Origin: a virus
DNA length: 44,307 bases
Strand: one strand, 5' to 3'
Virus genome (UHGV): UHGV-0213691
The position numbers and the translations under genes were made by a program. A model generated the notes under the pieces. That model did not search any database. It had not been told where the DNA came from and was given only the letters and a program-made list of their open reading frames with translations. Shown here in pieces: positions 8,412-31,338 of this stretch; positions within the stretch are counted from its first letter, which is position 1; each line of letters starts with the position of its first letter.

Positions 8412-8440
8412 ACTATAATAGTTAACTATTCAGGTGTCAA
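8412..8440 (-). promoter_or_regulatory. Sigma70-like promoter (TTGACA-17-TATAGT) with perfect palindrome AATAGTTAACTATT (8417-8430)
   Basis: Consensus -35, 17-bp spacer, operator overlapping spacer and -10; upstream of SSB-like gene. Confidence 0.55.
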
Positions 8441-11464: not shown

Positions 11465-11680
11465 ATGCAACCATCCGAACTAGGCATCCGTGTAGAACAA
11501 CGCCGTAAAGAACTAGGCATCTCCCAGCGCCGTCTTGCGGTCCTGGCCGGCGTTTCCCAGGGCGCGATTAACCAGCTTGCGCTCGGGGTAACTCAGGACG
11601 TCCGCCCGGCGACGCTGTTTAAACTGGCGGAAGTGCTGCAAGTAGACGCCAAGTGGTTGGCGTTCGGTGAAGGGGCTTAA
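11465..11680 (+). CDS. XRE-family helix-turn-helix transcriptional regulator (Cro/CI-like)
   Basis: 71 aa; HTH signature ELGISQRRLAVLAGVSQGAINQLALG; divergent from leftward early operon. Confidence 0.75.
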   Translation: MQPSELGIRVEQRRKELGISQRRLAVLAGVSQGAINQLALGVTQDVRPATLFKLAEVLQVDAKWLAFGEGA

Positions 11681-14023: not shown

Positions 14024-14257
14024 TTATTCCAGGTCTTCTAAAGTGGCTGTCATTCCGCGAACTTCGGCAACGGCACTATATTTCCCACCAACATTTTTCA
14101 CGGCACCAGATTTAACCAGTACCCTCAATGACCCTTCAATAATGGCAGAACTATAGTACTTAAAATAACTGCGGCGCAAGTCGATAACGCTGCACGACCC
14201 TTTTTTACGTGTTAACGAAACGACCGCCGTAAATACGCGTGACTGGAACTCGGTCAT
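14024..14257 (-). CDS. Hypothetical protein (77 aa)
   Basis: ATG start overlaps upstream gene stop (ATGA). Confidence 0.45.
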   Translation of the reverse strand: MTEFQSRVFTAVVSLTRKKGSCSVIDLRRSYFKYYSSAIIEGSLRVLVKSGAVKNVGGKYSAVAEVRGMTATLEDLE

Positions 14258-14424
14258 TTCACGTTCTCCTTAATCCACGCTTCCACCTTCTCCGGGTCAA
14301 ACGTACCTGGCTGACGGCGACCCATAATGCGAATACAGCAATCCGGGAACTTCCCGCTCTTTAACCAGTTATTCAGCGTGCGACGAGTAACTCCTATACG
14401 CTCCGCTACCTCATTCTGTGTCAT
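14254..14424 (-). CDS. AlpA/excisionase-like HTH DNA-binding protein
   Basis: 56 aa from ATG 14424 with GAGGG RBS (track start 14457 is TTG); MTQNEVAERIGVTRRTLNNWLKSGKFP. Confidence 0.55.
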   Translation of the reverse strand: MTQNEVAERIGVTRRTLNNWLKSGKFPDCCIRIMGRRQPGTFDPEKVEAWIKENVK

Positions 14425-14456
14425 TCTCAAACCCTCATTATCAGTTAACGAAACCA

Positions 14457-14485
14457 AGTATACATTGCGAATAATGGGAAATCAA
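14457..14485 (-). promoter_or_regulatory. Candidate leftward promoter (TTGATT-17-TATACT)
   Basis: Hexamers with 17-bp spacer read on minus strand, just upstream of ATG 14424. Confidence 0.3.
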
Positions 14486-14607: not shown

Positions 14608-14762
14608 ACAGGCTTACTGAACATGAGAATTATCGTAACTTTCCTTCCTAAGTATCTCCGGTTGCCATGGGCAAGCTCTATTCTCATCGGCAGCATATCT
14701 CTTAAGTATATGATTTTCTTAATGTGCCGTAGATTCGCAACCGTAAAAATGTAACGATTATT

Positions 14763-14790
14763 GGGCAGGCTTAAGGCCTGCCCTTTAGTT
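14763..14790. terminator. Hairpin GGGCAGGC-TTAA-GGCCTGCCC followed by TTTAGTT (terminator-like)
   Basis: Stable hairpin in 450-bp noncoding region; short T tract on plus strand. Confidence 0.4.
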
Positions 14791-14855
14791 ACCAAGTAAT
14801 AAGAATAAAGGCGCAACCTTCCCCAAAGAATCACAACGGCAACGTAACTATTCTC

Positions 14856-25019: not shown

Positions 25020-26063
25020 ATGAGCTTACTTACATCCCTAATCAGCCACCAGATATGGCTGCAACGCACCGCATCCGGTGAGGTGAAAGACCTCGCGCCG
25101 TTCATTCAGGAAATGCGAGATGAAATCAAACGGCAGGTTCTGCTATTCGGCGACGATGGGCGCAGCACTGCGCGACTGAATAAACTGTTACGCGACCTTG
25201 AAGAAGCGTTAACCGGACTTACAGGCGACTGGCAAACAAAACTGACAGAAGACCTTAAGGAACTGGCGGCGTACGAGGCTGAGTGGAACGCAAAGACACT
25301 TACCGCCAACGTAGACGCGGAATTTGTTACGCCTACTGCCGAGCAGGTGTGGGCCGCGGCCGAGTTTCAACCCTTATCGTTGGGTGACAAGCCTGTTGAC
25401 TTCACTAAGCTGATGTCGGGCTGGGGTGAAACAGAGGTATCGCGCCTGGTAACCGGCGTTAAGATGGGCTTTGTTCAGGGTCAGACAACGCGGCAGATTG
25501 TAAAGAATGTTGTTGGTGCCGGTGGCCTGGCTGATATCTCTGAACGTAACGCGGCTACCGTAATCCGCACTGCCCTGTCCCATGTGTCCAACGAAGCCCG
25601 TAACGAGACGTACCGCCAGAACGACGACATCATCGAGAAGTACGAGTGGGTGTCAACGCTTGATAGCCGTACCAGTACGATTTGCAGAGCCAGAGACGGA
25701 ATGACGTGGGAGATCGGTAAAGGGCCGATGCCACCAGCCCATCCGAACTGTCGGTCGTGTACGGCTCCGGTAATCAGTTCAGAGTTCGACTTCCTCGATA
25801 AAGGGGCAAAACGCGCTGCTAAGGGCGCGGACGGCGGCACACAAGTAAGCGCAGACACAACCTATTACGAGTTCCTGAAACAGCAACCGGCATGGTTCCA
25901 GGACCAGGCGCTCGGCCCTGTTCGCGGTAAGATTTTCCGTAACAGCGGTATATCGCCGGAAGAGTTTCGCGTAATATCTGTAGATGGTTTCGGGAATCCG
26001 CTGACGCTTAAGCAGATGGCGGAACTCGATAAACGTGTTGCTGATTATCTGAAAGGGGAATAA
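25020..26063 (+). CDS. Head morphogenesis protein (Mu gpF / SPP1 gp7-like)
   Basis: About 347 aa from ATG 25020 with AGGAGGG RBS; WVSTLDSRTSTICRARDGMTW...PPAHPNCRSC. Confidence 0.7.
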   Translation: MSLLTSLISHQIWLQRTASGEVKDLAPFIQEMRDEIKRQVLLFGDDGRSTARLNKLLRDLEEALTGLTGDWQTKLTEDLKELAAYEAEWNAKTLTANVDAEFVTPTAEQVWAAAEFQPLSLGDKPVDFTKLMSGWGETEVSRLVTGVKMGFVQGQTTRQIVKNVVGAGGLADISERNAATVIRTALSHVSNEARNETYRQNDDIIEKYEWVSTLDSRTSTICRARDGMTWEIGKGPMPPAHPNCRSCTAPVISSEFDFLDKGAKRAAKGADGGTQVSADTTYYEFLKQQPAWFQDQALGPVRGKIFRNSGISPEEFRVISVDGFGNPLTLKQMAELDKRVADYLKGE

Positions 26064-26524
26064 TGATGGGCTTTTTCAAAGTAACTGACGTACCGTCACG
26101 TCGCGTAGTACAGTACGCCCGCGTGTCTGGCTCTGGTGAGAACGTGGTGTTTATTGAGGATGAAAGTGTACCCGGTACACCTGTAGACGATATGCCGTTT
26201 GCGGATAAAACCGGCATTACGTTACCGGCGGCGGGTATGCTTTATGAAATCCCGTATCTGGCGGACGCTGGCGATGTGTATTTCTCTGTGCAGCCGAAAG
26301 ATACAGAACTGACAGACGGCAGCGCAACTATCGCTGTCGAAGTTAAGGCAGGCAAAGCGCCATACGCGCTTACCTGGTACAAAGACGGAAAGGAAGTGGT
26401 AAACGCCCCCGAAGAGGCTTTGTCTCTGACGGTTAACGCTGCGGGCGAATACTTCGTTAAGGTTACCGATGCCGGTGGCGTAGAGACCGTTAGCAAAGCG
26501 GCGAAGGTCACTAAGCCAGAATGA
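26063..26524 (+). CDS. Ig-like domain protein (possible head decoration)
   Basis: 153 aa; ATGA-coupled; I-set-like YALTWYKDGKEV...GEYFVKVTD. Confidence 0.45.
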   Translation: MMGFFKVTDVPSRRVVQYARVSGSGENVVFIEDESVPGTPVDDMPFADKTGITLPAAGMLYEIPYLADAGDVYFSVQPKDTELTDGSATIAVEVKAGKAPYALTWYKDGKEVVNAPEEALSLTVNAAGEYFVKVTDAGGVETVSKAAKVTKPE

Positions 26525-26527
26525 TAA

Positions 26528-26554
26528 AAGGCCCCGTTAAGGGGCCTTAGTTTT
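26528..26554. terminator. Bidirectional intrinsic terminator
   Basis: AAGGCCCC-GTTAA-GGGGCCTT followed by AGTTTT. Confidence 0.7.
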
Positions 26555-27271
26555 AAGTAACCATTCCGTTACTGTAGGGGGTTTAACCATTTCTATGGTG
26601 TGCCTCATTATAGCGGTTCGATGTAGTTTGTCTGTTATGTTAGGTAGTCTTGCTTTAGTTTTTGGCACATTTATAGCTACGTTTGTACTGTCAGCGCTGT
26701 CGAAAGGATAACGGCTTAGAGCCCTCCCATCCAGCATTCTAAGGCCATGGAGTTTTACATCCAATTTTCTGTTTCTATAAACCGCATTAAACGCCTGGTC
26801 CATTCTTTTCTCCCATGACTTAGACCGTATGGCCCTGTGCGGTCCGCAGCAACCTATCGCTACCCGATTGAACCCACGGCACAGCTTTACTAGTCTTCTT
26901 ATGCTTTCGTCACTGTGCCACACCGGGACTGCCTTAGACCTTAACCAATCTGGGACAGTTTCTATTAATGCGTCGTTCTCTTCCTCCGTGCCCTCTATAA
27001 CGTCCGGTATAATGAACCACTCAATACGACTGAACCACTCTCCGACAAAATCATAATATCCTGCCCAATGGGCGCTCCAGTCTATGTTGTCAGGTGCTTT
27101 CTTCCATGTCGAAAAAGCTCCGTTGTCCAACACTAATTTACATCTCAAGGCGGCGATTTTTTGTATTTGGTCAGGGCGGGCATATGACACCAGAGCGCCA
27201 CCCCCACGGTACAATGCTTTTATAAGCTCATCCCCACCCCAAATAGGACCCCCGTGGTAATGCACCGTCAT
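26537..27271 (-). CDS. dpdA: tRNA-guanine-transglycosylase-fold protein, DpdA-like (candidate 7-deazaguanine DNA transglycosylase)
   Basis: 244 aa; VLDNGAFS resembles the TGT substrate-Asp motif (L)TDSGGFQ; FDSADSTNVA resembles the TGT catalytic region DMFDCVxPTRNA; no C-terminal CxCxxC-H zinc subdomain; ATGA-coupled to upstream transporter gene. Confidence 0.5.
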   Translation of the reverse strand: MTVHYHGGPIWGGDELIKALYRGGGALVSYARPDQIQKIAALRCKLVLDNGAFSTWKKAPDNIDWSAHWAGYYDFVGEWFSRIEWFIIPDVIEGTEEENDALIETVPDWLRSKAVPVWHSDESIRRLVKLCRGFNRVAIGCCGPHRAIRSKSWEKRMDQAFNAVYRNRKLDVKLHGLRMLDGRALSRYPFDSADSTNVAINVPKTKARLPNITDKLHRTAIMRHTIEMVKPPTVTEWLLKTKAP

Positions 27272-27732
27272 TTAATTTTCCTCAACAAGAAAGACCACAA
27301 AGCTCCGCCAAAAACCTTAGCCGCGAATTGGCCCAGTACGACTAGCGGCATGAAAGAACCGAAAGCTATTAGTGGGAAAATAAAAGAGTCCGCCGCCGAG
27401 GCCGCGGTATTACTTACATTTGACTTAACTAGCCACTTTTTATTGATTAGTGCCTGGTAAACAACGGCATCCAGGATGGCAGCACAAGCGAAGGCAACAA
27501 CGCTTGCCACAGCAATCTTTCCGGTTGCCGGGTTTATGGAGAAACTTATAATGCCAGCTACTAGTATCAGTATGAATATTTTTTGTACGCCAATCCTCTC
27601 GTGCAACTTATCTCTTATTACGAAATCAAGCCCAATAAGTAGAAAGGCATTTACCGGTGTCGCTAACGGACCAAACACAGTTACCGAAAAGTTAGCAGCG
27701 CATATCGCCGCTACGTAAATTGCATACATCAT
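27268..27732 (-). CDS. Polytopic membrane protein, YhhQ/VUT-family-like (candidate queuosine-precursor transporter)
   Basis: 154 aa, several hydrophobic helices; GLDFVIRDKLHERIG, AAILDAVVYQALI and SAADSFIFPLIAF resemble remembered YhhQ motifs. Confidence 0.4.
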   Translation of the reverse strand: MMYAIYVAAICAANFSVTVFGPLATPVNAFLLIGLDFVIRDKLHERIGVQKIFILILVAGIISFSINPATGKIAVASVVAFACAAILDAVVYQALINKKWLVKSNVSNTAASAADSFIFPLIAFGSFMPLVVLGQFAAKVFGGALWSFLLRKIK

Positions 27733-27733
27733 A

Positions 27734-27895
27734 TTAGCGCCCCCAGTTACGGGCAGCGTTTGCCACTAGTGCAATCGTTTCTTCGAAAATGTAGTCAAGT
27801 TTAACAATCTGACGCATTTTACGGCGGAACTTACGTTTGTCCCCATTTTTCGAACTTAAATTAGTATTTACGGTAATTCTTTTTGCTAATTTCAT
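27734..27895 (-). CDS. Small basic protein (53 aa), first gene of moron operon
   Basis: Not in track; ATG with GGGAG RBS; stop 1 nt before transporter ATG. Confidence 0.3.
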   Translation of the reverse strand: MKLAKRITVNTNLSSKNGDKRKFRRKMRQIVKLDYIFEETIALVANAARNWGR

Positions 27896-27936
27896 TTTCC
27901 ATCTCCCATTTAAGTTAACATTGTTGGTGTAAGTGA

Positions 27937-27965
27937 ATAGTACCCTATTATGTTGGGGTGTGCAA
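27937..27965 (-). promoter_or_regulatory. Moron promoter (TTGCAC-17-TACTAT) with operator AATAGTACCCTATT (27936-27949)
   Basis: 33-bp block identical to the promoter at 14856-14884 except one base. Confidence 0.6.
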
Positions 27966-28017
27966 ACTATTTATTAACCTATTCCAGTTATTCCACCGAA
28001 TTGTAAATGTTAGAATA

Positions 28018-28060
28018 AACTATTCGAATAGTTGACTTTTCACTGAAAATGTGCTAAGCT
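28018..28060 (+). promoter_or_regulatory. Rightward promoter (TTGACT-17-TAAGCT) abutting perfect 16-bp palindrome AACTATTCGAATAGTT (28018-28033)
   Basis: Hexamers at 28032-28037 and 28055-28060; the palindrome has the operator half-sites in inverted order. Confidence 0.45.
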
Positions 28061-28240
28061 CCACCTGAGCTTGTGAAGTATGAACAAGCGACCGCGGCGC
28101 GGGCAGGTAACGGAGCGGGACGTAAGTCTTGAGTGTAGTTACGCTGACGCGTTCGGAATGGCCATACTCTATTGCTTGTGTAAAAAGTAACTGGTTTACT
28201 GAGATTACGCCGTTTCTATGTTTAAATGATAAGGCCTAGC

Positions 28241-28266
28241 GCCCCGCTTTATGGCGGGGCTTTACT
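28241..28266 (+). terminator. Leader terminator/attenuator upstream of spanin and capsid genes
   Basis: GCCCCGC-TTTATG-GCGGGGC followed by TTTACTT; about 180 nt downstream of promoter; RBS AAGGAG follows. Confidence 0.45.
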
Positions 28267-28284
28267 TATCGAGAAAGGAGAAAC

Positions 28285-28671
28285 ATGAATCTTAACGCAA
28301 CTGTCGTAGCAGGAGCATGTTTCATCATCCTGTTATACGCACACGGCTACTATCAATACCGCATCGGCTGGAACGAAGGCCGGGCGAATCTCGTTTCTCA
28401 GCAACAGCAGAAAGCACAGGCTGAGTTAGCGAAGAAAACACAACGGCAGCAGCAGGATGAATCTAAGGCCGCCGCCGCTGACAACGAAGGCAAGACGAAA
28501 TCAGAGGTGATTACCCGTGAAGTCGTTAAATACATTAAAACGCCTGGTCGCAGCGTGTGCACTTTCGATGATGCTCGCGTCATGCTCAAGTCCCGCGCCG
28601 TCGCAAACGCCAATTCCATCCCCGGATACGACGATGATGCAGCCGCCGTGCAAACTGGCACCACCAAGTAG
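28285..28671 (+). CDS. i-spanin (Rz-like)
   Basis: 128 aa; N-terminal TM (VVAGACFIILLYAHG), Q/K/E-rich periplasmic coiled coil; o-spanin gene embedded at 3' end. Confidence 0.6.
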   Translation: MNLNATVVAGACFIILLYAHGYYQYRIGWNEGRANLVSQQQQKAQAELAKKTQRQQQDESKAAAADNEGKTKSEVITREVVKYIKTPGRSVCTFDDARVMLKSRAVANANSIPGYDDDAAAVQTGTTK

Positions 28672-28780
28672 TGACGCTGACGAGGATTTAGCTATCGACG
28701 TCCAGAACGCCGAATGTGTACGGCAACTGAGACTGAAAGTGTTCATGCTGCAGGATTACGTGAGGAATATTCTGGAATAG
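28517..28780 (+). CDS. o-spanin (Rz1-like lipoprotein), overlapping i-spanin in +1 frame
   Basis: 87 aa; signal peptide with lipobox LASC, then Pro-rich SSPAPSQTPIPSP; GTG start with GAGGTGA RBS. Confidence 0.55.
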   Translation: MKSLNTLKRLVAACALSMMLASCSSPAPSQTPIPSPDTTMMQPPCKLAPPSSDADEDLAIDVQNAECVRQLRLKVFMLQDYVRNILE

Positions 28781-28862
28781 TTGCCTTGCATGTTGGAATA
28801 ATTTATTCTTGACATGTAAATCCGGGTGGCCCGGGTTCCAACGTCCAGGGGACATACTGACT

Positions 28863-29564
28863 ATGAATCGTTTTTTACGTTATCCGTTCCAGGAAGAAGC
28901 TGGGGCAGAAGATAAATCTGGTGGCGGTGACGCGCCGAAAATGTTCACAGCCGAAGAAGTTCAGGCGCTGATTGAGAAAGAGGTTGCCGGGCTTAAGGCC
29001 AATCAGGAAGCATTGCTGGCGGAGAAGAAAGAAGCCGCTCGCAAAGCAAAAGAGGCCGAAGAAGAACGGCAGCGTGCGCACCAGGAGGCGTTAAAAGCCG
29101 CCGGCAAGATGGACGAGTTCGAAAAAACGATTCGTAGCCAGTATGACCCGGTGTTAGCCGAGAAAGATGGTCGCATCTCCAGAATGGCAGAGCGCATCCT
29201 CGGCAGCGAACGTAAAGCGGTGTTAGGCTCTTTCGCTGGTGATTTTATTACCCCGGAAGCAGTAGACATTCTTGCACCGTTCGTTAAGACTGAGTTCGAA
29301 GGTGATGATGTGGTTACTAAGTTTGTCGGCGCAGACGGCAACGTAATCACGACTGACCCGGAACAGTTCCGCAAATACTTGCGCGAACATAAAGCGTTTT
29401 CGCATTTGATTAAAGCAAATGCAGCTTCCGGCGGCGGGGCTTCCGGTAGCAAAGGCGGCGGGGCCGCACCAGCGTTTAAAGACATGAGTGAAGCGGAGCG
29501 TTTAGCTCTGTATAAATCGAACCCTGCCGAATTTGAACGGCAACTTAAAGCCCTGAGGAAATAA
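28863..29564 (+). CDS. Putative scaffolding protein
   Basis: About 233 aa; E/K/A-rich coiled-coil; immediately upstream of major capsid gene. Confidence 0.55.
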   Translation: MNRFLRYPFQEEAGAEDKSGGGDAPKMFTAEEVQALIEKEVAGLKANQEALLAEKKEAARKAKEAEEERQRAHQEALKAAGKMDEFEKTIRSQYDPVLAEKDGRISRMAERILGSERKAVLGSFAGDFITPEAVDILAPFVKTEFEGDDVVTKFVGADGNVITTDPEQFRKYLREHKAFSHLIKANAASGGGASGSKGGGAAPAFKDMSEAERLALYKSNPAEFERQLKALRK

Positions 29565-29566
29565 TA

Positions 29567-30616
29567 ATGGCAATTACCACTATCGGCGATATCGTAACTG
29601 GCAACATCCCGGTCCTGGCGTCTTATATGACAGAGGACCCGGTAGAAAAAACCGCGTTCTTCCAGTCCGGTATTCTGACCCCGACCCCGTACGCTGCCGA
29701 GATTGCCCGCGGCTCGTCCAACATCGCTAATATTCCTTTCTGGAAAGCGATCGATACGTCTATCGAGCCTAACTACTCGAACGACGTATATCAGGACATC
29801 GCTACCCCGCGTAACGTGCAGACCGGTGAGATGATGGCCCGCGTTGCTTATCTGAACGAAGGTTTTGGACAGGCGGATTTGACCGTTGAACTGACCAGCC
29901 AGAACCCGCTGCAATCCGTAGCATCTCGTCTGGATAACTTCTGGCAGCGTCAGGCGCAGCGCCGTCTGATTGCTACCGCGCTCGGCCTGTACAACGACAA
30001 CGTAGCTGCGACCGATGCGTACCACGAGCAGAACGACATGGTTGTAGACGTGTCCGCGACTCTGGGCTTCGACTCCGGCGCGTTCATCGATGCAACCCAG
30101 ACTATGGGTGATGCTCTGATTGGTAACGGCGGCGAGGTGCTGGGCGCTATCGCGATGCACAGCTTCGTTTATGCGCAGGCCCGTAAGCAGCAGCTTATCG
30201 ACTTCATCCGCGACGCCGACAACAACACCGAGTTCGCCACCTACCAGGGCTACCGTGTGATTGTTGACGACAGCATGACCGTAGTCGGCACCGGTACGAG
30301 CCGTAAGTTCATCTCCATCATCTTTGGCAACGGCGCTATCGGCTACGGAGAAGGCAACCCAACCAAGCCGCTGGGCTATGAGCGCGAAGAGTCTCGCGGC
30401 AACGGCGGCGGCGTTGAAACCCTGTGGACCCGTAAGACCTGGTTGCTGCATCCGTTTGGTTACAGCTTTACCAGCGCGGTAATCACCGGCAACGGCACCG
30501 AGACTATCGCTCGCTCTGCTTCATGGCAGGACCTGGCGAACGCCTCCAACTGGAACCGTGTGGTTGAGCGTAAGCACGTACCGATTGCCTTCCTGGTAAC
30601 TGGTGTCGGTGCTTAA
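29567..30616 (+). CDS. Major capsid protein
   Basis: 349 aa; GAGGAA RBS; follows scaffold and precedes strong terminator; size and position typical. Confidence 0.75.
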   Translation: MAITTIGDIVTGNIPVLASYMTEDPVEKTAFFQSGILTPTPYAAEIARGSSNIANIPFWKAIDTSIEPNYSNDVYQDIATPRNVQTGEMMARVAYLNEGFGQADLTVELTSQNPLQSVASRLDNFWQRQAQRRLIATALGLYNDNVAATDAYHEQNDMVVDVSATLGFDSGAFIDATQTMGDALIGNGGEVLGAIAMHSFVYAQARKQQLIDFIRDADNNTEFATYQGYRVIVDDSMTVVGTGTSRKFISIIFGNGAIGYGEGNPTKPLGYEREESRGNGGGVETLWTRKTWLLHPFGYSFTSAVITGNGTETIARSASWQDLANASNWNRVVERKHVPIAFLVTGVGA

Positions 30617-30632
30617 GGTTAAGCTATAATCG

Positions 30633-30660
30633 AGAGGGACTTCGGTCCCTCTTTTCATTT
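30633..30660 (+). terminator. Intrinsic terminator after major capsid gene
   Basis: AGAGGGAC-TTCG-GTCCCTCT followed by TTTCATTT. Confidence 0.7.
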
Positions 30661-30675
30661 ACTAAGAGGTAAATT

Positions 30676-30975
30676 ATGGCTAAGACCGGAAAAGGCTTGC
30701 CGCGCAGCCTTCAGAATGTTGACTTCGGTGACCTTGATATCCCTGTAACGCCTGCTACTACCAGCGTAGTTGGTGGGGTTAAAAAGTCAGCTACTGTAGC
30801 CGCACCCGCGGCCATTACCGCTGCCGCCGGGGCGCAGTCCGCTGCGGAACCGACTAAAGCTGAGTTCGATGCCCTTGTAGCGGAGTACAACAAACTCCGA
30901 ACCGATGTTACTGCGCTGCGCACTACCGTAGCAAATCTGTTGACTGCGCTTAAAAACGCAGGAACCGTAAGCTAA
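30676..30975 (+). CDS. Hypothetical head-associated protein (99 aa, Ala-rich)
   Basis: AAGAGGT RBS; downstream of capsid gene. Confidence 0.45.
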   Translation: MAKTGKGLPRSLQNVDFGDLDIPVTPATTSVVGGVKKSATVAAPAAITAAAGAQSAAEPTKAEFDALVAEYNKLRTDVTALRTTVANLLTALKNAGTVS

Positions 30976-30987
30976 AGGAGCTTAAAA

Positions 30988-31338
30988 ATGGTTGATGTAA
31001 TCAAACGTCGCATTACTGGTGTCTCTGACGACTCCCCGGCTGATGGCCAGGTAGAAATCGACATGGCAAACATCTCGCCAGCATCTTTTTCTACCGCACT
31101 GAACGCTACCACAGCAGTTACAGCCGGGCAGACTATGACACTGACCGTAGTTGTTACCGGTGGTCTGGTGCCGTACACCTACCAGTGGTACAAGGATAAC
31201 AACGCTATACCAGGCGCTACCGCGGCTACCTACGCGAAGGCGTCTACTACGACCGCAGATTCAGGCACGTATAAAGTGGTTGTTCACGATGTGTATGGTA
31301 ATATTATCTCCAGCAGCACTGTAGCAACTGTGTCTTAA
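30988..31338 (+). CDS. Ig-like domain protein (Hoc-like decoration candidate)
   Basis: 116 aa; I-set-like YTYQWYKDNNAI...DSGTYKVVVHD. Confidence 0.5.
   Translation: MVDVIKRRITGVSDDSPADGQVEIDMANISPASFSTALNATTAVTAGQTMTLTVVVTGGLVPYTYQWYKDNNAIPGATAATYAKASTTTADSGTYKVVVHDVYGNIISSSTVATVS

Follow-up and report, generated by a model that had tools for sequence, protein, structure and literature searches.

Just ahead of the spanin genes of a Kagunavirus-like siphophage, a promoter, a perfect palindrome, an untranslated leader and a GC-rich hairpin follow one another in close succession, and their order raises the question of whether the lysis and structural genes downstream are held under a switch like that of phage lambda. 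A sequence-only reading of this locus had proposed such a switch, in which late expression would need antitermination as at lambda pR'-tR', with a small RNA or an attenuator as alternatives. The window referred to here is the whole stretch of DNA that was analysed (UHGV virus genome UHGV-0213691, 44,307 nt), and all the features listed in that first reading are present in it, either in place or displaced by at most 1-2 nt (Table 1).

The unit formed by the promoter and the leader is conserved across the Guernseyvirinae, where it occurs as three sequence types: A in Kagunavirus, B in Jerseyvirus and C in Cornellvirus. Scanning IMG/VR with an IUPAC pattern gave 119 matches, among which the real leaders are 47 loci of type A or B, the remaining ones being unrelated sequence. 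The type C leader was missed by the structure model R1 run on Cornellvirus, and was located through synteny. Beyond the phages, blastn against 5,426 E. coli genomes gave no match to the leader, and Rfam 15 at the gathering threshold gave none over the whole window; at E <= 10, the best match in 27600-28500 was wcaG, whose 18.6 bits stay below its gathering score of 42. ARAGORN found neither a tRNA nor a tmRNA, and the "tRNA-Ser" of some Jerseyvirus records is irrelevant to the leader, since it belongs to the other strand and covers the end of the preceding gene. Variable genes of the opposite strand are inserted just 5' of the unit. A literature search on the regulation of transcription in Kagunavirus, Jerseyvirus and Guernseyvirinae returned only genome announcements and a single Kagunavirus RNA-seq paper, whose data are at gene level and come without expression tables for the leader region (PMC12645636).

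Table 1. Features of the spanin leader locus and of the adjacent capsid promoter, in window coordinates.
Feature	Position	Strand	Remarks
Direct repeats CTATTCC and TTATTCC	27979..27994	+	9-bp period; 5' of P1; putative half-sites
15-bp dyad (A/G)GAATAA-N-(C/T)TATTC(G)	28012..28026	.	core GAATA-N3-TATTC at 28013-28025; candidate site
Perfect 16-bp palindrome AACTATTCGAATAGTT	28018..28033	.	half-sites CTATTC/GAATAG
P1, predicted promoter	28032..28060	+	-35 TTGACT 28032-37; 17-nt spacer; TG 28052-53; -10 TAAGCT 28055-60
H1, 5'-terminal hairpin	28069..28089	+	GCUUGU/ACAAGC, 9-nt loop; starts 1-2 nt past the predicted start site
36-codon ORF (MNKRPRRGQ...)	28080..28190	+	not a gene
H2, long GC-rich hairpin	28092..28156	+	compensatory changes
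H2 segments			P1a 92-94/154-156; P1b 96-101/148-153; P1c 104-106/144-146; P2 107-111/138-142; P3 116-121/126-131, GUAA loop
Conserved block CGGAAKGGCC	28154..28163	+	sole leader sequence block common to types A, B and C
H3, small variable hairpin	28187..28199	+	GUAA/UUAC; weak support
P5, closing helix	28212..28284	+	GUUUCU 28212-17 / AGAAAC 28279-84; encloses H4
H4, extended hairpin	28227..28271	+	lower stem 28227-33/28265-71; middle 28237-39/28262-64; upper GC stem 28241-48/28253-60
i-spanin gene	ATG 28285, stop 28671	+	SD AAGGAG 28275-80; phrog_2536, Rz-like spanin, E = 2.5e-55
o-spanin ORF	28517-28780	+	overlaps i-spanin; lipobox LASC
P2 unit, predicted promoter	28765..28837	+	GAATATTC; GAATAG-TTGCCT (-35 28781-86); 17-nt spacer; TATTCT (-10 28804-09)
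P2 dyad GAATAATTTATTC	28796-28808		conserved with P2 in types A, B and C
P2 predicted start site	~28816		5' hairpin 28819-26/28830-37; scaffold ATG 28863

The promoter proposed earlier, TTGACT-17-TAAGCT, is indeed there and is kept in types A and B, with TGGATT-17-TGaTAACCT as its Cornellvirus equivalent. It also carries an extended -10 TG that the sequence-only reading did not mention. A simple sigma-70 scan did not list P1, because its -10 hexamer fits the consensus at only three of six positions. A regular expression located a promoter in 40 unique sequences of types A and B, all of which conform to T[TA]GA[CT]T-17-TGnTA[AC]GCT, and T-12, A-11, T-7 and the TG are invariant. The elements expected of an extended -10 site for sigma-70, i.e., TG at -15/-14, T-12/A-11/T-7 and a -35-like hexamer at 17 bp, are all found, with transcription predicted to start at 28067/28068. 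P1 is thus supported as a conserved, predicted sigma-70-type promoter, the case for which rests on its conservation. The motif TGnTAMGCT was also considered as a recurrent late-promoter signal and set aside, its five matches not differing significantly from the 2.8 expected.

Which genes would this promoter serve? The strong ribosome-binding site announced before the i-spanin gene is confirmed by an AAGGAG ahead of its ATG, and the leader always lies directly 5' of that gene, including the cases in which the spanin allele was exchanged (L035-37, L049). The placing of the leader upstream of the capsid genes holds less well: the spanin part stands, whereas the scaffold and capsid genes have a conserved promoter of their own, P2 (28781-28809), which is predicted to serve them. 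A hairpin at the 5' end of the P2 transcript covaries across types (AAUCCGGG, ACACCGGG, AGCCGGG). Between the spanins and P2 of Cornellvirus stand a strong terminator and a gene on the minus strand, so that P2 must initiate independently and the leader there serves the spanins only.

The perfect 16-bp palindrome said to abut the promoter is present in one exact copy in the window, where it shares positions with a 15-bp dyad and with bases 1-2 of the P1 -35 hexamer. It is, however, within chance expectation: in first-order Markov simulations, a 44-kb sequence holds on average 0.74 perfect palindromes of this length and 53% of sequences hold at least one, so that taken alone it is not beyond chance. 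It is also specific to type A, in which it is nearly invariant, being replaced by ACTTTATTCAAAAAGT in type B and AAATTATTCAAAAAGT in type C. The conserved operator-like element would rather be the overlapping dyad GAATA-N3-TATTC, which is conserved in all three types and whose centre lies at about -48 from the predicted P1 start; we consider it a candidate operator or activator site. In its exact form, GAATANNNTATTC, it occurs at just two sites in 44 kb, the P1 dyad and the P2 dyad at 28796-28808, and phage Bas70, a BASEL Kagunavirus, has the same two and no others. With up to one mismatch allowed, there are six matches against 1.15 expected, a number reached in none of 100 shuffles.

Further upstream, the direct repeats CTATTCC/TTATTCC are likely to be regulator half-sites as well; their segment, ATTCCAGTTATTCC, shows no variation in type A or type B and reads ATTATTCCAATTATTCC in Cornellvirus. 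They belong to one of just two five-site clusters of GAATA/TATTC per genome, which lie at P1 and P2 in both the window and Bas70. Being the only places with such dyads and such clusters in the two genomes, P1 and P2 would be co-regulated. A putative early operator of the phage reads GAATAG-N4-CTATTC. Pfam and PHROGs scans identify two small helix-turn-helix proteins in the window, HTH_3/Xre at 11465-11680 and HTH_17 at 14254-14457.

The region between P1 and the spanins had been credited with a possible 36-codon ORF behind a weak ribosome-binding site, and several GenBank records annotate one or two "hypothetical proteins" over it. Such annotations would agree with a leader that encodes a small protein, either this one or a frame with a shared AFGR peptide, and same-frame ORFs that include ...AFGR... 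do run over the conserved block in type A (36 aa), in type B (39 aa, from GTG) and in type C (31 aa, from GTG). Nevertheless, the shared peptide is a mere reflection of the conserved nucleotide block GCNTTCGGRAGR, the start codons vary by type and have no Shine-Dalgarno sequence, the 36-codon frame included, and the ATG context of the latter is missing in all type B sequences. Even among type A relatives the frame is broken or truncated (L002, L003, L008 and L019), and a 1-nt deletion at 28101 within it is found in five sequences. Moreover, the frame has accumulated 9 synonymous and 37 non-synonymous changes, with fewer synonymous ones than the other two frames (15-16). The 36-codon ORF is not a gene, and a protein-coding leader is scarcely credible.

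The leader is under strong selection. Over 35 type A loci its nucleotide diversity is 0.032, against 0.167 at the third codon positions of the adjacent spanin gene, whose first and second positions show 0.06-0.07. The folding energy of the single sequence is unremarkable (z = -1.57, with 12 of 200 shuffles folding as well), and the claim of a structured leader rests on comparative data. Within type A, five pairs have changed on both sides where 0.5 would be expected, a number reached in 0 of 500 shuffles. When types A and B are aligned, 97.4% of the cells are paired, against 37-45% if the partners are slid by 1-3 columns, in an alignment that was itself fitted to the model structure. Double changes affect 22 of the 57 pairs, compared with 10.4 +/- 1.7 in shuffles, the independent lineages behind this covariation being few, namely the two types and the variants L008 and L027. 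Furthermore, a structure model built on type A recovers type B over its full length with 64-70 bits, while a model of sequence only gives 38-43 bits. The G-U pairs 96/153, 97/152 and 118/129 work on the plus strand only, and show the plus-strand RNA to be what folds. We conclude that the leader is a predicted non-coding, highly folded RNA of about 215 nt, on the plus strand, 5' of the spanin genes.

The individual elements of this fold differ in how they are conserved. H1 keeps its place and shape while its sequence is specific to each type (ACGCU-UUC-AGCGU in B, UUCGU-UCU-ACGAA in C); its helix is 99.6% paired, with four of six pairs changed on both sides. In all three types a hairpin begins 1-3 nt after the predicted start of transcription, as is also the case at P2, and H1 is likely to be an mRNA-stabilising 5' stem-loop. 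H2 shows a compensatory change from C-G to U-A at 98/151 in L008, L027 and all type B sequences, with others at 108/141, 119/128 and 120/127, and differs greatly among the types. The block CGGAAKGGCC at its 3' edge takes the form CGGAAGGGTCG in type C. H3 varies mostly in its loop in type A, where the stem changes fit wobble pairing; type B does not conserve it, with 89% pairing and zero double changes. A long-range helix suggested by RNAalifold for type A, 28077-82/28163-68, was discarded, substitutions at 28163, 28167 and 28168 disrupting it in several phages.

At the 3' end, P5 covers the last base of the i-spanin Shine-Dalgarno sequence and the spacer up to the AUG. It is 96.2% paired; at the pair 214/282, every type B sequence has A-U in place of U-A, and positions 216 and 279 show wobble changes only, with one mismatch in type B. 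The minimum free energy structure of type C contains an analogous closing helix, CCUUAUCC/GGGUUGGG, adjoining the Shine-Dalgarno sequence. The covariation of P5, the constant position of the leader and the Cornellvirus terminator located after the o-spanin gene link the leader in cis to the spanin gene.

Could the DNA itself be what is conserved, as a pac site, a transcription-primed replication origin or a recombination linker between modules? The leader stands, with very high conservation, at a mosaic junction where leader types and spanin alleles have been shuffled and where variable genes are inserted alongside; the repeated half-sites are iteron-like, and the replication module of the phage is T7-like, T7 replication origins being promoter-linked. 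Still, the compensatory changes keep pairing, including G-U pairs valid only in plus-strand RNA, and the structure-aware model outperforms the sequence model on type B. Hairpins also coincide precisely with the predicted 5' end and with the ribosome-binding site. All of this is characteristic of RNA and would not be expected of a DNA site, and we take this explanation to be extremely unlikely.

As had been noted, the leader ends in a GC-rich hairpin just 5' of the i-spanin ribosome-binding site, and the switch hypothesis depends on whether this hairpin, H4, terminates transcription. Its upper part, GCCCCGCT/TTAT/GGCGGGGC at 28241-28260, is followed by TTTACTTAT; as in intrinsic terminators and attenuators, a stem of 8 bp with seven G-C pairs and a 4-nt UUAU loop precedes a UUU in the window phage. 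The hairpin has a free energy of -16.5 kcal/mol in type A and is the top terminator-like site of 26000-31000, an interval with 11 such sites against 5.2 +/- 2.1 in shuffles. The late region is interrupted by terminators at 26528 and 30632. On a d'Aubenton-Carafa-type score, calculated with our own implementation of the published rule, which gives no efficiency, H4 reaches +17 in type A and -3 to -17 in type B, and the post-capsid terminator, with which the type A hairpin is comparable, +9.7.

Unlike that of typical intrinsic terminators, the tail of H4 (UUUACUUAU, 28261-69) has U at only six of nine positions. In the window this U-tract is moderate; that of Jerseyvirus (UUAGCGUAU) is degenerate, and Cornellvirus (UGUUACGAU) has none, although a hairpin stands at the place of H4; the homologous hairpins of types B and C thus fall short as terminators on this count. 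The nucleotides of the tail are kept, rather, as the 3' strand of a lower stem which covaries between type A (GAUAAG/CUUAUC) and type B (UAUACG/CGUAUA), and compensatory changes also occur at 245/256. Of the proposed hairpin terminator at 28241-28266, then, the GC hairpin and a partial U-tract stand in this phage, and the conservation of the tract does not. It is plausible that H4 acts as an intrinsic terminator in type A only, where it would be leaky at best. The short transcript predicted from these limits, from about 28067/68 to about 28263-28269, would measure some 195-200 nt, and the earlier figure of about 180 nt for the leader has to be revised.

With these elements, the lambda hypothesis can be weighed. 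It supposes that P1 is constitutive, that polymerase stops at H4 and that a late phage protein allows it to read through. The resemblance to lambda pR'-6S-tR' is real in outline, since both combine a sigma-70-type promoter, an untranslated leader (here about 195-200 nt) and a GC hairpin with lysis or structural genes next; operator-like dyads adjoin the promoter, which is strong and lies about 195 nt from the terminator-like hairpin, and in type A the first transcribed bases include a -10-like TATGAA (about +12 to +17). Yet no Q- or N-like protein was found among ten small ORFs of the window (Pfam, PHROGs), nor any antitermination protein in the 83-CDS Pharokka annotation of the close relative Bas70, only the two small helix-turn-helix proteins having come to light; a novel factor may hide among the many small uncharacterised ORFs. 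The TATGAA segment is deleted in type B and different in type C, so that a conserved promoter-proximal pause element is missing, the weak U-tract is lost in the sister genera with its nucleotides selected as a paired strand, and P2 provides the capsid genes further on with a promoter of their own.

No conserved alternative pairing that could act as an antiterminator to H4 was found either; a pairing of the P3 5' strand with the 5' arm of H4 was rejected on account of uncompensated changes in L008 and L027. By-eye resemblances to boxA/boxB, RfaH ops, CRP, Fis, RcsAB and CsrA motifs proved weak or not conserved. Extensive structure under strong selection, such as that of the window leader, is not known for lambda 6S RNA. 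Since a functional terminator and an antiterminator are both required, the analogy is unsupported: nothing shows a lambda-style antitermination switch at the spanin leader, and its existence appears quite improbable. Of the alternatives named in the sequence-only reading, a small RNA and an attenuator remain viable.

Antitermination without a protein is also conceivable. In phage HK022, put RNAs of about 70 nt, consisting of two stem-loops just past the promoter, act in cis without phage proteins, suppressing downstream terminators by way of the beta' zinc-binding domain (PMC9378689). By analogy, H1 and H2, transcribed as soon as polymerase has initiated, would bind it and make it resistant to H4 and to the terminators of the late region at 26528 and 30632. 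The geometry is shared: two adjacent conserved hairpins lie at +2 to +90, their sequence conservation exceeds the needs of pairing, and the phage, as HK022, has no recognisable antitermination protein. On the other hand, no sequence similarity or demonstrated structural homology to putL/putR was found, Rfam returned nothing relevant, and H1 with H2 spans 77-88 nt and diverges strongly between genera; the great differences in H2 from one type to the next fit poorly with a conserved contact to the invariant host polymerase. In addition, the P1 unit of Cornellvirus appears to end at a normal, strong terminator, which a put element should suppress. We judge this mechanism very unlikely.

More weight can be given, within limits, to a stand-alone small RNA gene, whose product, an abundant and stable RNA of about 200 nt, would act in trans on targets in the host or the phage, or bind a protein, with read-through into the spanins as an incidental event. 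P1 combines a near-consensus -35 with an extended -10, the leader is non-coding, the RNA is flanked by hairpins at both ends, the type A hairpin scores as a terminator, and strong conservation extends to the apparently single-stranded segments CGGAAGGGCC, UAUUGCUU and GAUUACGCCGU, common to types A and B. Against this, the 3' hairpins of types B and C have no U-tract, so that a defined 3' end would need processing, and P5 joins the RNA structurally to the start region of the spanin gene. The tail differs from the long poly-U typical of Hfq-dependent small RNAs, complementarity elsewhere in the phage is limited to 11-12 nt, which we estimate to be the chance level, and nothing similar appears among the E. 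coli genomes or in Rfam families. On balance, such a gene seems unlikely, if less so than the preceding options.

What would best account for the observations is that 27979-28284 holds the regulatory sequences and the 5' leader from which the spanin genes are transcribed as a unit, comprising a regulated promoter, a structured leader and a leaky attenuator, a reading to which we assign a probability of about one half. Judging from sequence and conservation, host sigma-70 RNA polymerase would initiate at P1 (TTGACT-17-TGcTAAGCT), around 28067/68, and a phage DNA-binding protein would probably modulate this initiation through the GAATA/TATTC half-sites clustered at P1 and P2. H1, at the very start of the transcript, would shield its 5' end. 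Transcription would proceed into the long GC-rich H2, and then into a 3' domain in which P5 and H4 would lie on the ribosome-binding region of the i-spanin gene, the fold of both being shown by comparison. In type A, the upper stem of H4 and its UUUACUUAU tail would probably stop a fraction of the transcripts, yielding a stable RNA of about 200 nt with hairpins at both ends, while the rest would read through, with no dedicated antiterminator having to be assumed. In the read-through mRNA, P5 and H4 should limit or time spanin translation, or else act in processing or stability, perhaps as an RNase III-type helix of some 18-24 bp. In the window phage, the spanin transcription unit would continue into the scaffold and capsid genes.

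In this sense, the sequence is best read as a 5' leader that stabilises the mRNA and modulates its translation. Structured leaders with such effects on mRNA stability or on access to translation include the E. coli ompA 5' stem-loop, the lambda N leader and the early mRNA processing sites of T7, some of this group being processed by RNase III. With them, the window leader would share a hairpin at 1-3 nt from the 5' end, an irregular helix of about 18-24 bp before the ribosome-binding site and a closing helix touching the SD-AUG spacer; it differs in being much longer (about 215 nt) and in having conserved unpaired blocks. This difference weighs against our explanation, for some 215 nt at about 97% identity exceed the obvious needs of stabilisation or translational control, as do single-stranded blocks such as CGGAAGGGCC, conserved across genera. 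The account probably lacks a further partner of the leader, be it a protein, RNA polymerase or some other RNA.

The spanin leader is a real regulatory leader, undescribed in the literature searched. A bolder extension, which we put forward tentatively and hold to be unlikely, is that it founds a regulatory RNA found throughout the Guernseyvirinae and having a partner of its own, either as a cis-acting, put-like polymerase element that allows protein-free read-through of the late-region terminators or as an abundant, stable 200-nt RNA that binds a factor of the host or the phage, coupled to P2; if so, the coupling with the capsid promoter would pass through the shared GAATA-N3-TATTC operator. 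Kagunavirus, Jerseyvirus and Cornellvirus are among the most-isolated phages of E. coli and Salmonella, and are widely used in cocktails for therapy and biocontrol. For this subfamily, the locus yields two promoters with a common mark that lend themselves to testing, P1 for the lysis-accessory genes and P2 for those of the capsid, together with GAATA-N3-TATTC as a candidate operator and a non-coding RNA of about 215 nt, structured and under strong selection, that GenBank records annotate as hypothetical proteins. A corrected annotation, together with a defined role for the RNA, would explain how the expression of spanins and capsid is set, and an action of the RNA on polymerase or in trans, if borne out, would make it a new class of phage regulatory RNA.

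The arrangement that the sequence-only reading had noted before the spanin genes is real and conserved. The palindrome, the promoter hexamers and the strong Shine-Dalgarno sequence (SD) before the i-spanin start codon are all present as described, together with an extended -10 element that the description lacked, and the hairpin with its tail is the top terminator-like site within the surrounding 5 kb. A perfect 16-bp palindrome is expected by chance 0.74 times per 44 kb, the predicted promoter (P1) falls below the threshold of a simple consensus scan, its -10 matching at 3/6 positions, and the single-sequence folding energy of the leader, the ~215-nt RNA between P1 and the i-spanin gene, is unexceptional (z = -1.57); therefore, the case needs comparative evidence, which in the matter of folding favours structure. 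We propose as the likeliest role, at a probability of about one half, a regulated sigma-70 promoter with a spanin 5′ leader that would stabilise the transcript and gate its translation, with a leaky attenuator in the window phage.

Features of the locus and related sites in the window
Feature	Position	Strand	Sequence or remark
Intergenic palindrome	8417-8430		perfect, 14 bp; AATAGTTAACTATT
H4-like hairpin	14743-14801	+	GC stem GGGCAGGC/GCCTGCCC, UUUA, lower stem GUAAC/GUUAC
Symmetric hairpin	26528-26548		AAGGCCCCGTTAAGGGGCCTT; terminator flag on both strands
Inserted cassette	26537-27895	-	three ORFs
~36-nt motif	27930-27965, 24940, 37157	+	(T/C)A(A/G)GTGAATAGTACCCTATTATGTTGGGGTGTGCAA
~36-nt motif	14891, 16242, 11396, 11440	-	same motif
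GAATA-N3-TATTC	28013-28025, 28796-28808		at P1 and P2
P1 palindrome	28018-28033		perfect, 16 bp
P1 -35	28032-28037	+	TTGACT, 17-nt spacer
P1 extended -10	28052-28053	+	TG
P1 -10	28055-28060	+	TAAGCT
36-codon frame	28080-28190	+	rejected as a gene
H1		+	5′ hairpin
H2		+	long, GC-rich, terminating in P3 with GUAA loop
H3		+	weak, variable
P5	28212-28217/28279-28284	+	closing helix
H4	28241-28260	+	extended hairpin (lower, middle, upper stems), the position given being that of the upper GC stem with its loop; tail TTTACTTAT
i-spanin ATG	28285	+	
o-spanin ORF	28517-28780	+	GTG 28517; lipoprotein signal MKSLNTLKRLVAACALSMMLASC
P2 unit	28765-28862	+	GAATATTC; dyad GAATAATTTATTC
P2 -35	28781-28786	+	GAATAG-TTGCCT, 17-nt spacer
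P2 -10	28804-28809	+	TATTCT
P2 5′ hairpin	28819-28826/28830-28837	+	predicted transcription start of P2 ~28816

With the i-spanin gene as an anchor, 48 IMG/VR loci and several GenBank phages were collected. Type A leaders, at 90-99% identity, come from 183 phage records, Kagunavirus and some Salmonella phages included, those of type B, typified by phage Jersey (Jerseyvirus), from 269, and type C was located by synteny in Cornellvirus FSL SP-031. An IUPAC pattern scan of IMG/VR returned no leader type beyond those known, and since the next capsid relatives are only ~42% identical, the element is confined to the Guernseyvirinae. In four loci (L035, L036, L037, L049), a leader of type A that shares 93-95% identity with the window is joined to a divergent spanin allele (76-83% nucleotide identity), which places recombination junctions at the spanin start codon or inside the gene; L035 and L049, the two checked, carry a type B-like region at the second promoter-like unit (P2), before the scaffold gene.

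Strong selection acts on the leader, a structured RNA that is non-coding and unannotated. Over 35 type A loci its nucleotide diversity is 0.032, and that of the adjacent spanin gene 0.167 at third and 0.06-0.07 at first and second codon positions. The 36-codon ORF that had been suggested exists as an open frame, but was rejected as a gene because it is broken or truncated from its ATG in L002, L003, L008 and L019, with a 1-nt deletion at 28101 in five sequences, because its ATG context is missing from every type B sequence, and because the distinct type A substitutions are 9 synonymous versus 37 non-synonymous in this frame (15-16 synonymous in the other two). A small protein, with which an “AFGR” peptide common to types A, B and C in one frame might be connected, is scarcely credible: the peptide is shared because a conserved nucleotide block underlies it, and its start codons differ between types and lack an SD.

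The structure model combines folds of single sequences, RNAalifold output and the location of substitutions. In type A alone, 98.9% of cells are paired under it, and double-sided pair changes number 5 against 0.5 expected, a value reached in none of 500 shuffles. A covariance model built on the type A alignment finds full-length type B at 64-70 bits, versus 38-43 bits for a model of this alignment that uses sequence alone. In an A+B alignment, fitted to the model structure and holding few independent lineages, 97.4% of cells are paired versus 37-45% after sliding the partners by 1-3 columns, and double changes are seen in 22 of 57 pairs (10.4 +/- 1.7 in shuffles). Several G-U pairs can form on the plus strand alone, so the plus-strand RNA is the functional species. 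A further long-range helix (28077-28082/28163-28168) was rejected on account of disruptive substitutions in several phages.

Turning to P1, T[TA]GA[CT]T, the 17-nt spacer, TG at -15/-14 and TA[AC]GCT are kept in 40/40 unique type A and B sequences, being those where a regular expression located a promoter; type C has TGGATT-17-TGaTAACCT, and T-12, A-11 and T-7 of the -10, plus TG, are invariant across the three types. In each of them a hairpin begins 1-3 nt past the predicted start (GCUUGU...ACAAGC in A, ACGCU-UUC-AGCGU in B, UUCGU-UCU-ACGAA in C), a common position that supports this start and suggests that the hairpin stabilises the RNA 5′ end.

Between the o-spanin and scaffold genes, P2 forms another highly conserved stretch (diversity 0.013-0.054), kept in types A, B and C with a covarying 5′ hairpin that starts 2-3 nt past its predicted start, and it has the GAATAG-TTGNCT arrangement in common with P1. 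In Cornellvirus it must fire independently, since it lies behind a strong terminator and a gene on the opposite strand. Within the window, exact GAATA-N3-TATTC sites and 70-nt stretches with five GAATA/TATTC pentamers are restricted to P1 and P2, and the relative Bas70 repeats this pattern. Across the three genera, the leader has diverged more than the DNA sites upstream of it (TTATTCC repeats, dyad), and such sequence features point to a putative DNA-binding regulator shared by P1 and P2; the dyad being conserved across genera, the palindrome is an elaboration of it found in type A. A purely DNA-level site, to which the strand-specific G-U pairs are opposed, is highly improbable.

We conclude that termination at H4, formerly read as the terminator, is partial at most and specific to type A. 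In the window phage its upper stem (dG -16.5 kcal/mol) with UUUACUUAU scores +17 by our own implementation of the d'Aubenton-Carafa rule, similar to the post-capsid terminator (+9.7); homologous type B hairpins, with tail UUAGCGUAU, score -3 to -17, and in type C the sequence after the hairpin is UGUUACGAU, without any U-tract. The tail nucleotides are the 3′ strand of a covarying lower stem (GAUAAG/CUUAUC in A, UAUACG/CGUAUA in B), so that what is conserved is an extended double helix just before the SD. P5 encloses this helix, pairs with the SD-AUG spacer and includes one compensatory pair; an analogous closing helix appears in the type C MFE fold. The conserved role of H4 and P5, we conclude, is structural, in translation control, processing or stability. 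A stand-alone small RNA, favoured by the hairpins at both ends and the high type A score of H4 and disfavoured by the degenerate or missing U-tract in types B and C, is rather unlikely; the rest of the phage genome has no significant complementarity to the leader, E. coli genomes hold nothing similar, no Rfam family matches and a tRNA search found none.

The proposed antitermination switch of the lambda pR'-tR' type is unlikely, the resemblance being geometric only: no antitermination protein occurs among the 83 CDS of the well-annotated Bas70, ten candidate ORFs in the window gave no antiterminator by Pfam and PHROGs (only 71-aa Xre-type HTH and 67-aa HTH_17 proteins), and neither the U-tract nor TATGAA, which resembles a -10 element early in the type A transcript, is conserved, the latter missing from types B and C. 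A put-like RNA, as characterised in PMC9378689, is very unlikely, as H2 diverges strongly between genera and the Cornellvirus transcription unit seems to stop at a strong terminator after o-spanin.

The 1-kb region around the locus matches 301 phage records, chiefly Kagunavirus and Salmonella Guernseyvirinae, at 94-96% identity in the best matches. In annotated relatives, portal, head morphogenesis and Hoc-like genes, a terminator and a variable slot with opposite-strand genes precede the region of interest, followed by i-spanin and o-spanin, scaffold and major capsid protein. Some relatives have only a 147-nt C-terminal piece of o-spanin annotated, apparently through truncation in gene calling. 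The slot, in relatives occupied by other genes or empty, holds in the window a minus-strand cassette, lying between P1 and the terminator of the Hoc-like gene, with a DpdA-like transglycosylase (phrog_887, E = 4.6e-84), a YhhQ/Vut_1-family transporter and a 53-aa ORF; its content suggests that the phage carries 7-deazaguanine modifications in its DNA. The symmetric hairpin at its junction with the Hoc-like gene is likely a bidirectional terminator. Similarity to other phages picks up again at 27930, where one copy of a ~36-nt motif lies that is absent from phages with no inserted genes. The seven copies of the motif each stand between divergent gene starts, two directly upstream of the Xre-type regulator gene; on the opposite strand five read TTGCAC-17-TACTAT and point at opposite-strand inserted genes and rightward early genes. 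It is probably an early-gene and inserted-gene promoter with operator GAATAG-N4-CTATTC, a layout (AATAG-N4-CTATT) repeated in the palindrome of an intergenic gap among the clustered leftward replication genes. The H4-like hairpin, a weak match to the leader model (18.5 bits; 24.8 in Bas70), adjoins the rightward early promoter on its left side and may be an insulating terminator. The ‘tRNA-Ser’ annotated in Salmonella phage celemicas (L052, 525-602, minus strand) and similar Jerseyvirus records covers, on the opposite strand, the terminator of the upstream structural gene together with the last part of that gene; ARAGORN found no tRNA at homologous loci, and the annotation is probably a false prediction copied between records.

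Searches on Kagunavirus, Jerseyvirus and Guernseyvirinae transcription returned no literature on this element. The promoter-leader-hairpin unit is of a familiar kind and its mechanism here is a proposal; the RNA family itself is new, and it is widespread among phages used in therapy.
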